A DNA stretch of 64,000 nucleotides from a virus (Duplodnaviria > Caudoviricetes): the IMG/VR virus record IMGVR_UViG_3300032295_002982, positions 1-64,000 of that record, one strand, 5' to 3'. Shown here piece after piece: positions 5,657 through 25,794 of this stretch. A model generated the notes under the pieces. That model did not search any database, was not told where the DNA came from, and worked only from the letters and a program-made list of their open reading frames with translations. The stretch's first letter is position 1, and every line of letters starts with the position of its first letter. The position numbers and the translations under genes were made by a program.

Positions 5657-5685
5657 TTGACATTACATTGTTTGTATTGTAAAAT
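5657..5685 (+). promoter_or_regulatory. sigma70-type promoter (leaderless start predicted at ATG 5692)
   Basis: TTGACA-17-TAAAAT; the A of ATG lies 7 nt after the -10. Confidence 0.85.
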
Positions 5686-5691
5686 AACATC

Positions 5692-5781
5692 ATGAACGCA
5701 ACAACAGCCTGGTTATCAATAGAACGCACAACACTGTGTGTGACCATCTATGAGCGTGATCCGGGCACAGGGCCTGCGTGA
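5692..5781 (+). CDS. Putative attenuator leader peptide 1 (29 aa)
   Basis: MNATTAWLSIERNTLCVTIYERDPGTGPA*. Its last codons overlap an antiterminator strand. Confidence 0.65.
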   Translation: MNATTAWLSIERTTLCVTIYERDPGTGPA

Positions 5782-5806
5782 TTGTTTGAGAATTCAACAG
5801 TTAACG

Positions 5807-5839
5807 AGCCCTGGACCAAAAATCCAGGGCTTTTCATTT
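5807..5839 (+). terminator. Attenuator terminator 1
   Basis: AGCCCTGGA-CCAAAAA-TCCAGGGCT-TTTCATTT. Confidence 0.8.
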
Positions 5840-8846: not shown

Positions 8847-9043
8847 GAACCTCGCAGGCCCTTCTGCGCAATTAAAGGGGGTGATTGGCTTCACCATAAC
8901 GCCAGGGCGCATACGATCGCAGCCTCAAAGCCCGCTTACATGGGTGATAGAAAAATCGTAGGTTTAGCTGGCACGAGCCATAAGGACCGTCAGGGGACAG
9001 GGCGACAACTCAGTCCGGGGCTGATGAGGATCAGTAGCCGGAC
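8847..9043 (+). ncRNA. Structured ncRNA, copy B (same 3' module as 6381-6597)
   Basis: GGACAGGGCGACAACTCAG followed by a GTCCGG...CCGGAC stem. Confidence 0.55.
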
Positions 9044-9071
9044 ACTTATTTCAAAATGGTAAATAAAACTG

Positions 9072-9100
9072 TTGACAATAAATTTGTGATGCTATATACT
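9072..9100 (+). promoter_or_regulatory. sigma70-type promoter (leaderless start predicted at ATG 9107)
   Basis: TTGACA-17-TATACT; ATG 7 nt after the -10. Confidence 0.85.
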
Positions 9101-9106
9101 ATTGAC

Positions 9107-9211
9107 ATGATGACGTTGCTGAAAAACTTGCTCAAGCCCAATAACTGCCCAGCACTAGCCTGGTCACGCGGCTTGACCATGGGCAATTTTAGTCAAGGAG
9201 TGGGGTCTTAG
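9107..9211 (+). CDS. Putative attenuator leader peptide 2 (34 aa)
   Basis: MMTLLKNLLKPNNCPALAWSRGLTMGNFSQGVGS*. The stop codon lies in the antiterminator 5' strand. Confidence 0.65.
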   Translation: MMTLLKNLLKPNNCPALAWSRGLTMGNFSQGVGS

Positions 9212-9248
9212 AATAACTGAATCACAAAACAGATTCAAATATTCAAAG

Positions 9249-9282
9249 ACCCTGGAAGTAAAAACTCCAGGGTTTTTTGTTT
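9249..9282 (+). terminator. Attenuator terminator 2
   Basis: ACCCTGGA-AGTAAAAAC-TCCAGGGT-TTTTTGTTT. Confidence 0.88.
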
Positions 9283-9476
9283 CAAAGTGTGAGGCAACGA
9301 GGGCCTATCCCGCACTCAAAACATGGGACAACGGGCGGTACCGAGGATGAAACTGCTGGCGGTAACAGCATAGTAAAATTCGGTATGTGTAAGTGCGTTC
9401 TTGCGAGTGCATTTACACATACACATTCACATGAATGTGTGAGTTTGATTGTTGTTGAGAGCATCAAGCAAGACAG

Positions 9477-9551
9477 GTCCGGGTAGCTCAGAGGCAGAGC
9501 ACTGTGTTGATAACGCAGGGGTCAAGATATCGTAATTCTTCCTGGACACCA
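9477..9551 (+). tRNA. trnI: tRNA-Ile(GAT) with atypical T-loop
   Basis: TT-GAT-AA anticodon loop; T-arm AAGAT-ATCGTAA-TTCTT. Confidence 0.8.
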
Positions 9552-9557
9552 AACAAT

Positions 9558-9631
9558 TCCGGAGTGGTGTAATGGCAGCGCCGCGGTCTCCAAAACCGCT
9601 AGTGGGGGTTCGATTCCCTCCTCCGGAGCCA
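9558..9631 (+). tRNA. trnW: tRNA-Trp(CCA)
   Basis: Cloverleaf, CT-CCA-AA, G73, CCA. Confidence 0.95.
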
Positions 9632-11748: not shown

Positions 11749-11820
11749 TTTTCAAGGAGAAAGCCATGACTACCGAACAGTATTGGCAGTGGATTCATGA
11801 CAATGTGCAATGACTTCCGT

Positions 11821-25072: not shown

Positions 25073-25101
25073 TTGACCACAGTCAATATCTGTGTTACAA
25101 T
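25073..25101 (+). promoter_or_regulatory. sigma70-type promoter of the thyX operon
   Basis: TTGACC-17-TACAAT. Confidence 0.8.
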
Positions 25102-25107
25102 AATCCT

Positions 25108-25794
25108 ATGCAAGTACGTTTACTATCTTATAGCCAACCCACATCAGAGTTTGCGGCGCAAGGCATTGCTGATGCGCAGGAACTCATTGCCTACTGCGCA
25201 AGAGTCAGCAATCCCAGCAATCAGCTCAATACAGAGACATCCCAACGTCTGATCCGATACCTGATCAAACATCAACATTGGTCGCCCTTGGAGATGGTGA
25301 GTGCATGTCTGGAGATCACTACCACTCGAGACATTGCTAGACAAATTCTACGACATCGCAGTTTCAGTTTTCAAGAATTCAGTCAACGCTATGCGGATCC
25401 CACACAGGATCTTGATTTTGTCACACGCGAAGCTCGACTACAAGACACTGCCAATAGACAAAACAGTATAGAACTAGACCTTGCCCATGACCTTGATGCT
25501 AGAGAACTCAATCGCGAATGGTATCAGCGTCAGTTGGATGTGATCAAGGCAGCACGTGAAACCTATACCTGGGCTGTAAACAACGGCATTGCCAAAGAGC
25601 AGGCTCGTGCAGTGCTGCCCGAAGGACTCATGAGCAGTCGTTTGTACATGAATGGCACTCTACGTAGCTGGATACATTTCATAGAACTGCGCAGTGGCAA
25701 TGGCACCCAACGCGAACATCAGCAAGTGGCTGTGGCCTGTGCCAATGTCATTGCAGCAATTTTTCCCATGGCTGTTGAGTTGACTTCGGCCTAA
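25108..25794 (+). CDS. thyX: FAD-dependent thymidylate synthase
   Basis: CARVSN, HWSPLE, RQILRHRSFSFQEFSQRY, EQARAVLP, LRSWIHFIELR. Confidence 0.97.
   Translation: MQVRLLSYSQPTSEFAAQGIADAQELIAYCARVSNPSNQLNTETSQRLIRYLIKHQHWSPLEMVSACLEITTTRDIARQILRHRSFSFQEFSQRYADPTQDLDFVTREARLQDTANRQNSIELDLAHDLDARELNREWYQRQLDVIKAARETYTWAVNNGIAKEQARAVLPEGLMSSRLYMNGTLRSWIHFIELRSGNGTQREHQQVAVACANVIAAIFPMAVELTSA

Follow-up and report, generated by a model that had tools for sequence, protein, structure and literature searches.

A probable ribosome-dependent transcription attenuator in front of the tRNA genes of a putative jumbo phage

Ribosome-mediated transcription attenuators have in common a short ORF, provided with its own start signal, that follows the promoter and precedes the regulated genes, an intrinsic terminator (GC-rich stem and T tract) ahead of those genes, and an antiterminator that is mutually exclusive with the terminator and lies where a ribosome can control it; read-through in this class depends on translation of the leader. 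In the classical trp, his, leu, thr, ilv, and pheA attenuators, the promoter-proximal ORF contains a run of regulatory codons, the antiterminator overlaps the terminator, and a ribosome positioned at the leader stop favours termination. These leaders additionally form an anti-antiterminator, which causes super-attenuation of untranslated RNA, and their cargo consists of biosynthetic enzymes. Sensors of the TnaC/SecM type have short leaders in which one conserved Trp is critical and, in TnaC and SecM, lies at a fixed distance of ~11-13 residues from the arrest point; termination controlled by TnaC is Rho-dependent. The bmrB-bmrCD system of Bacillus subtilis senses translation performance rather than a single amino acid: translation of the bmrB leader, which has a Shine-Dalgarno-led start, selects among three alternative stem-loops that decide for or against the terminator, slowed ribosomes lead to read-through into the resistance genes, and the codon choice of the leader tunes the decision (PMC4191407). 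Leaders that start directly at the transcription start are known from Actinobacteria, where they contain runs of the sensed codon and precede amino-acid genes. The short ORF of the ilvB leader from Corynebacterium diphtheriae needs no ribosome-binding site (PMC5784534), and the mycobacterial polycysteine short ORFs are likewise leaderless (bioRxiv 10.1101/834739).

The stretch of DNA analysed here (the window) comprises positions 1 to 64,000 of an IMG/VR virus record of 84 kb, whose CheckV completeness of 21% points to a jumbo phage of roughly 400 kb. Auxiliary genes (e.g., TauD, peptide deformylase, and SAH hydrolase) are found among its tRNA genes, and a baseplate-type protein indicates a distant link with three jumbo phages, Atu_ph07, Phosso, and PA5oct. 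Close relatives were sought through the neighbouring proteins and none were found, while the GenBank phages searched gave matches to the tRNA genes only. A switch in front of a tRNA array would bear on the question of what leads large phages to keep such arrays and in what way they are used; to our knowledge, nothing is known about the regulation of phage tRNA arrays. The module in front of the first regulated tRNA genes (Table 1) is read here as a ribosome-dependent two-state transcription attenuator heading a phage tRNA transcription unit, with a probability of about 0.6. The core of this reading, already contained in the original prediction, is a translated, mostly leaderless leader ORF that precedes tRNA genes and ends inside an antiterminator competing with a terminator. 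It is strongly supported by comparative evidence, namely covariation of both helices, conservation of the ORF and its start signals, placement of the stop codon, and synteny with tRNA arrays.

Table 1. Coordinates of the module, its cargo, and related features (window positions unless an accession is given)
Feature	Position	Strand	Remarks
Sigma-70-type promoter TTGACA-17-TATACT	9072-9100	+	11/12 consensus matches
-35 TTGACA; spacer; -10 TATACT	9072-9077; 17 nt; 9095-9100	+	
Leader ORF, 34 codons + TAG	9107-9211	+	predicted leaderless, ATG at +1
Sole Trp codon of the leader	9161-9163	+	
Leader stop TAG	9209-9211	+	
Antiterminator hairpin, 52 nt	9202-9253	+	MFE fold; -23.4 kcal/mol alone
Antiterminator 5' arm; 3' arm	9202-9215; 9240-9253		5' arm holds the stop codon
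Inner hairpin of the antiterminator, 6 bp	about 9218-9237		
Intrinsic terminator	9249-9282	+	stem 9249-9256/9266-9273, A-rich loop, T6GT3; -15.6 kcal/mol
Conserved structured ncRNA, first cargo	9283-9470	+	at least 25 IMG/VR loci; two covarying helices
tRNA-Ile(GAT), tRNA-Trp(CCA), first regulated tRNA genes	9477-9631	+	ARAGORN; array runs to 15165
tRNA genes, 27	6.2-15.2 kb	+ (all)	ARAGORN
Second, diverged module copy	5657-5838	+	promoter, ATG at +1, 29-codon one-Trp ORF, hairpin, terminator
Shine-Dalgarno-led gene, 54 codons	5851-6015	+	directly after the second module copy
Candidate analogue in Atu_ph07 (L218, L220)	MF403008.1 339246-339060	-	sequence-free scan

The original prediction placed a promoter of the type TTGACA-17-TATACT in front of an ATG at +1 and a leader of 34 codons with one Trp codon, and all of these elements are found where it put them. 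The A of the ATG is the seventh base after the -10 hexamer, and transcription is predicted from the promoter spacing to start at 9107. A similar arrangement is present in thyX (Pfam Thy1, 228 aa; 25073-25794), a full-size gene of the same phage that also appears to be leaderless: its ATG lies exactly 7 nt after the -10 of a TTGACC-17-TACAAT promoter. With an ATG at the promoter +1 in such a gene, leaderless translation is plausible in this phage system. Most module promoters have, within their spacer or adjacent to it, an ATAAATA motif resembling the T4 late-promoter box (9060-9083 in the window). In four homologous loci (L095, L099, L181, and L127), the motif replaces the TATAAT box 5-8 nt before the ATG, which suggests a second, phage-specific promoter class with the same leaderless start. 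Further upstream, the intergenic region that separates tRNA-Thr from the module promoter contains a GC-rich stretch (8847-9048) with 77% identity to stretches situated downstream of the module in five other loci (L079, L061, L006, L004, and L002). This stretch is probably another conserved ncRNA. A hammerhead-like sequence within it (CTGATGAG, 9021-9028) was rejected, having no Rfam support.

Pairing of the end of the leader ORF with a strand that overlaps the terminator was central to the original prediction, and it is recovered as the MFE fold of the region. The two arms pair at 13 of 14 positions (one of them as G-U) around the inner hairpin, and the bases ACCCT (9249-9253) belong both to the 3' arm of the antiterminator and to the 5' arm of the terminator; as had been proposed, the two folds are therefore mutually exclusive. 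Termination is predicted at 9282. A generic shuffle test of terminator-arm sequestration in the MFE fold was dropped, as 5-72% of shuffles do equally well; for the present sequence, when the upstream RNA is shuffled 100 times, at least as much of the terminator arm is sequestered in 60 of the outcomes. Since this test does not discriminate, a position-specific test and counts of covariation were used instead. The former compares 53 nt around the stop codon with 13 nt straddling the start of the terminator. In the window it finds a 9-bp run that is matched by none of 500 shuffles, and its median p over 45 modules is 0.014. Across the modules, the hairpins range from -15 to -30 kcal/mol and are usually more stable than the respective terminators (-14 to -19 kcal/mol). 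The only Rfam match of the module is a partial one to Rev39_5p_UTR (28.2 bits vs a gathering score of 88); being sub-threshold and covering the terminator region alone, it was rejected as an identity. In five homologous loci searched against Rfam, the module itself gave no match.

Directly 3' of the T tract, modules are followed by either a conserved structured ncRNA or a Shine-Dalgarno-led gene of 50-60 codons. The ncRNA in the window contains the invariant blocks AACGAGG, CAC, and AAYGGGCGG and matches no Rfam family. No promoter with at least 9/12 consensus matches occurs between 9283 and 9476, and no strong terminator is present downstream of the module before about 15.3 kb. In ~38 of 49 modules, a gene or an ncRNA follows at a distance of 10-34 nt from the T tract, and the interval contains no promoter. 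In ~10 of 49, a second strong promoter occurs less than 200 nt 3' of the terminator (at no more than ~80 nt in seven of them), and transcription from it would bypass the switch. The original prediction takes the output of the module to be tRNAs; all modules precede tRNA arrays, but in related modules the first cargo is often a small protein gene or a conserved ncRNA. The arrays harbour other elements as well. A GOLLD RNA (RF02032) with an embedded tRNA lies within the tRNA array of one homologous phage contig (L064:2987-3452, 188.6 bits, above the gathering score), and none was found in the window between 5000 and 17000. A mini-ORF of 15 codons, two of them coding for Trp, is located between tRNA-Gln and tRNA-His (11766-11813). 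In two other loci (L017 and L080), the same mini-ORF stands 3' of the module terminator and is preceded by a strong Shine-Dalgarno sequence.

Homologous modules were collected in two ways. A terminator-hairpin pattern yielded a first set of 88 IMG/VR loci, about half of which contain a homologous module with a promoter of the same type, an ATGATG that coincides with +1 or adjoins it, a one-Trp ORF, a GGGTCY...RGACCC pairing, and the terminator. As this pattern fixes the terminator sequence, a second ascertainment made use of the conserved ncRNA 3' of the module and added ~20 modules with terminators of different sequence. A covariance model trained on 47 sequences detects 54 copies (53 distinct) in ~50 IMG/VR phage contigs, including two in the window. 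The second of these, absent from the training set, is matched by the model at 5764-5838 with 34.2 bits (E 8e-8); its antiterminator, taken alone, is not above chance. A same-strand tRNA array is found downstream of every module. The terminator hairpin (CCCTGGA...TCCAGGG with an A-rich loop) also occurs in ~35 loci among L007-L078 (e.g., L010 and L025), where it lies 3' of a gene ending in ...NFAPV that looks structural and highly expressed. It thus constitutes a shared terminator cassette in this phage group.

When the homologous loci are aligned, both helices covary, in agreement with the original prediction. In the terminator stem (47 sequences), 99.2% of cells are paired and six of eight pairs have changed on both sides; such double-sided changes amount to 35 cells compared with 7.1 in shuffles, a value reached by none of 500 (the sequences are related by descent, and the shuffle statistics given here therefore overstate independence). 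In the base helix of the antiterminator (53 sequences), 81% of cells are paired, compared with 57-58% when the alignment is slid by one column, and double-sided changes are seen in 48 cells and eight of nine pairs, compared with 19.0 cells after shuffling (0/500). Two antiterminator positions alternate among C-G, U-A, and G-C within the first set. Where the sequence of the terminator is altered, the 5' arm of the antiterminator is altered too and the overlap is kept: L095 and L109 each show a match of 13/13, and the stems differ in L111, L127, and L139. This co-variation of the overlap is seen in the ascertainment in which the terminator sequence was not fixed. Conservation of the antiterminator is limited to its base helix, the interior varying from about 20 to 50 nt. 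Potential upstream partners of its 5' arm, which could form an anti-antiterminator, are at chance level, with 0 of 42 modules above it. Without such a third helix, the RNA would have two states, and untranslated RNA should read through.

The leader ORF, 21-51 codons in length, is open in all 49 modules, as a functional leader would predict. A promoter with at least 10/12 consensus matches (TTGACA-17-TATAAT-like), with its -10 ending 5-10 nt before the ATG, precedes 32 of the 49 ORFs, and in 26 of 49 the ATG follows a strong -10 by 5-7 nt. In seven modules, those located inside tRNA operons, a Shine-Dalgarno sequence takes the place of the promoter, an exchange that would be difficult to account for if the ORF were not translated. 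The stop codon always lies within the hairpin, 19-38 nt before the terminator stem (24-38 nt in most modules and near 19-23 nt in a few), and the 5' arm of the antiterminator begins 9-36 nt before the stop (45 modules). Trp is present in 47 of 50 leader peptides and is the sole residue kept across subfamilies, at about codon 15-25 with outliers at codons 7 and 11. The leaders have nearly always one Trp, and none of the 50 peptides contains a codon run. A tRNA-Trp gene as the first or second downstream tRNA is restricted to one subfamily (AWSRG); a tie between the Trp codon and this gene was rejected, as shared descent explains the association in that subfamily equally well.

About half or more of the changed leader codons are non-synonymous, the synonymous bias is weak, and the reading frame of the GGGTCY RNA arm differs between subfamilies, so that the peptide itself appears weakly constrained. 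Strong purifying selection on it is not seen, and its drift is what would be expected for a regulatory leader. These features bear on the alternative that survives best, in which the module is a stand-alone early gene for a small Trp peptide, its hairpin stabilises the 3' end of the mRNA or limits translation, and the tRNA genes are transcribed by leak-through or from other promoters. A promoter, a short ORF, and a terminator do make a complete gene, the subfamilies have peptide motifs (e.g., AWSRG and NSIPG), and the new promoters behind the terminator in ~10 modules as well as the annotation of the Atu_ph07 counterpart as a hypothetical protein would fit. Leader peptides can also work in trans, as is reported for peTrpL (PMC7298713). 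However, most of the peptide is near-neutral, the frame in which the conserved RNA arm is read changes between subfamilies, the peptide matches no family in Pfam or PHROG, and the majority of downstream genes lack their own promoter. A stand-alone gene would moreover leave unexplained both the constant, co-varying overlap of the hairpin 3' arm with the terminator 5' arm and the invariable location of the stop in the hairpin, and is considered unlikely.

The next alternative accepts the switch and replaces the ribosome as its sensor by an RNA-binding protein of phage or host, a small RNA, or a metabolite that would stabilise one of the two structures, hairpin or terminator, with the ORF merely carried along. 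The terminator loop is A-rich and YTAAAAAC-like, also in modules whose stems differ, and could bind such a factor; the occurrence of the same hairpin behind a structural-type gene in ~35 other contigs points in the same direction. A passenger ORF is nevertheless difficult to reconcile with a frame kept open throughout, with a leaderless or Shine-Dalgarno start, and with a stop fixed relative to the helix; in addition, the high variability of the hairpin interior in length and sequence argues against a ligand pocket. A sensor other than the ribosome is therefore distinctly unlikely.

According to the ribosome-dependent reading, host RNA polymerase would start at or next to the ATG and produce a leaderless mRNA for the leader. 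If no ribosome were present at the leader end while 9240-9282 is transcribed, the antiterminator hairpin would form first and hold the ACCCT of the terminator, and polymerase would read through into the ncRNA and tRNA genes. A ribosome at the stop would unwind and cover the 5' arm of the hairpin, allowing the terminator stem to fold and transcription to end. Under such a two-state mechanism, transcription of tRNAs and ncRNA would rise when leader translation is slow, stalled, or uninitiated, and the net effect would be a negative feedback on translational capacity. The sequence elements, their conservation and covariation, the maintained ORF, and the placement of the stop are observed; the transcription start, ribosome-polymerase coupling, the direction of the switch, and its signal are inferred from them.

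Folding calculations are consistent with this direction. A 30-nt footprint at the stop raises the median terminator probability across modules from 0.34 to 0.97; an increase is obtained in 27 of 47 modules, and the probability is never lowered much. In the window, masking of the stop region shifts it from 0.42 to 0.93, as the original prediction would have it. A footprint at the Trp codon gives 0.92 at equilibrium, i.e., the probability is raised, not lowered. With the free RNA of the window nearly balanced between the two folds and this effect of the Trp footprint, the dynamic range of the present module may be small or kinetically set.

The opposite polarity, known from pyrBI-type leaders, would have a closely following ribosome suppress the terminator and untranslated RNA terminate. 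Ribosomes terminating within ~17 nt of a terminator repress it, whereas a terminating ribosome more than about 30 nt away no longer blocks it directly (PMC4824070). The few modules with the shortest stop-to-stem distances would come near to such repression, and the free RNA of several modules already favours the terminator at equilibrium. Yet the distances in most modules are past strong direct occlusion, the conserved antiterminator would be left without a role, and the footprint at the stop acts in favour of the terminator. Together, the mostly non-occluding distances and the footprint folding favour the reading in which an untranslated or slowly translated leader reads through and a ribosome at the stop terminates transcription; the reverse arrangement is improbable. 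Phage early transcripts often carry RNase III-type sites, and the long imperfect duplex does adjoin tRNA precursors that need processing, but a site parting the leader from these precursors, with an incidental terminator overlap, is very improbable, since only the base helix is conserved around an interior of variable length and the ORF, the stop placement, and the terminator co-variation would all go unexplained.

Under the attenuator reading, the conserved single Trp codon, ~40-70 nt upstream of the hairpin, would be the likeliest designed slow step. Compared with known attenuators, one Trp codon makes a weak sensor. The module may sense the general speed of translation, its initiation, or specifically Trp-tRNA. 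A narrower proposal, under which the module exists to sense the supply of tRNA and a pause in the leader, above all at Trp, causes the phage to transcribe its own tRNA array, is tentative and on balance doubtful. The shortage of charged tRNA involved could stem from a mismatch in codon usage, from starvation, or from a host tRNA-cleaving defence.

Applied to the cultured jumbo phages Atu_ph07, Phosso, and PA5oct, the covariance model (R1) returned terminator-like noise only (best E 0.006). The tRNA regions of Atu_ph07 and Phosso were also examined in a sequence-free scan, which identified one candidate analogue, located in Atu_ph07 ~190 nt ahead of the leading tRNA gene in the main array. It comprises a Shine-Dalgarno-led ORF of 42 codons with one Trp (AUZ95228.1, annotated as a hypothetical protein) and a 9-bp antiterminator overlapping the terminator AACCGGGTAA/TTACCCGGTT (2/2000 shuffles). 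The same scan also gave one doubtful match among 11 other terminator-like sites in this genome; the false-positive rate of the scan is thus non-trivial, and the Atu_ph07 case is a candidate that represents a lead rather than a finding.

A conserved leader-peptide switch of this kind would mean that the tRNA supply of these phages is not constitutive but coupled to translation performance, with a bearing on codon-usage compensation and on escape from host defences that target tRNA. If the narrower proposal of a tRNA-supply sensor were true, tRNA genes would be under a homeostatic control that senses translation, of a kind not known from cells or viruses and common among jumbo phages of lakes. 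The 53 natural variants with their compensatory changes and a cultured phage-host candidate make the switch testable by ordinary reporter genetics.

In terms of its sequence elements, the module contains those that characterise ribosome-mediated attenuators in general, i.e., a short ORF with a start signal between promoter and regulated genes, an intrinsic terminator with a GC-rich stem and T tract, and an exclusive antiterminator at a position that a ribosome could control, and its design is assigned to this class. In the literature searched, no attenuator controlling phage or cellular tRNA genes was found, in line with the novelty claimed by the original prediction and with the missing Rfam match; the module would be the first attenuator of this type to control RNA genes. 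With the classical attenuators it shares the promoter-proximal ORF, the terminator, the overlapping antiterminator, and the proposed termination by a ribosome at the leader stop. The attribution to the logic of amino-acid attenuators does not stand beyond this layout, as the module has a single Trp codon in place of a codon run, lacks the anti-antiterminator, with the consequence that untranslated RNA should read through instead of being super-attenuated, and precedes phage tRNA and ncRNA genes instead of biosynthetic ones. The short leader with one critical conserved Trp recalls TnaC/SecM-type sensors, but a fixed Trp spacing as in TnaC is ruled out by a Trp-to-stop distance of 12 to 33 codons, and the terminator of the module is intrinsic. 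In start mode, the module comes closest to the leaderless ORFs of Actinobacteria, although here the start is predicted from promoter spacing. The closest functional analogue is bmrB-bmrCD, which belongs to another organism and differs in its number of alternative structures, its mode of initiation, and its cargo. Compared with it, the module would provide a natural example of a two-state, mostly leaderless design that reads through by default into phage tRNA and ncRNA genes.
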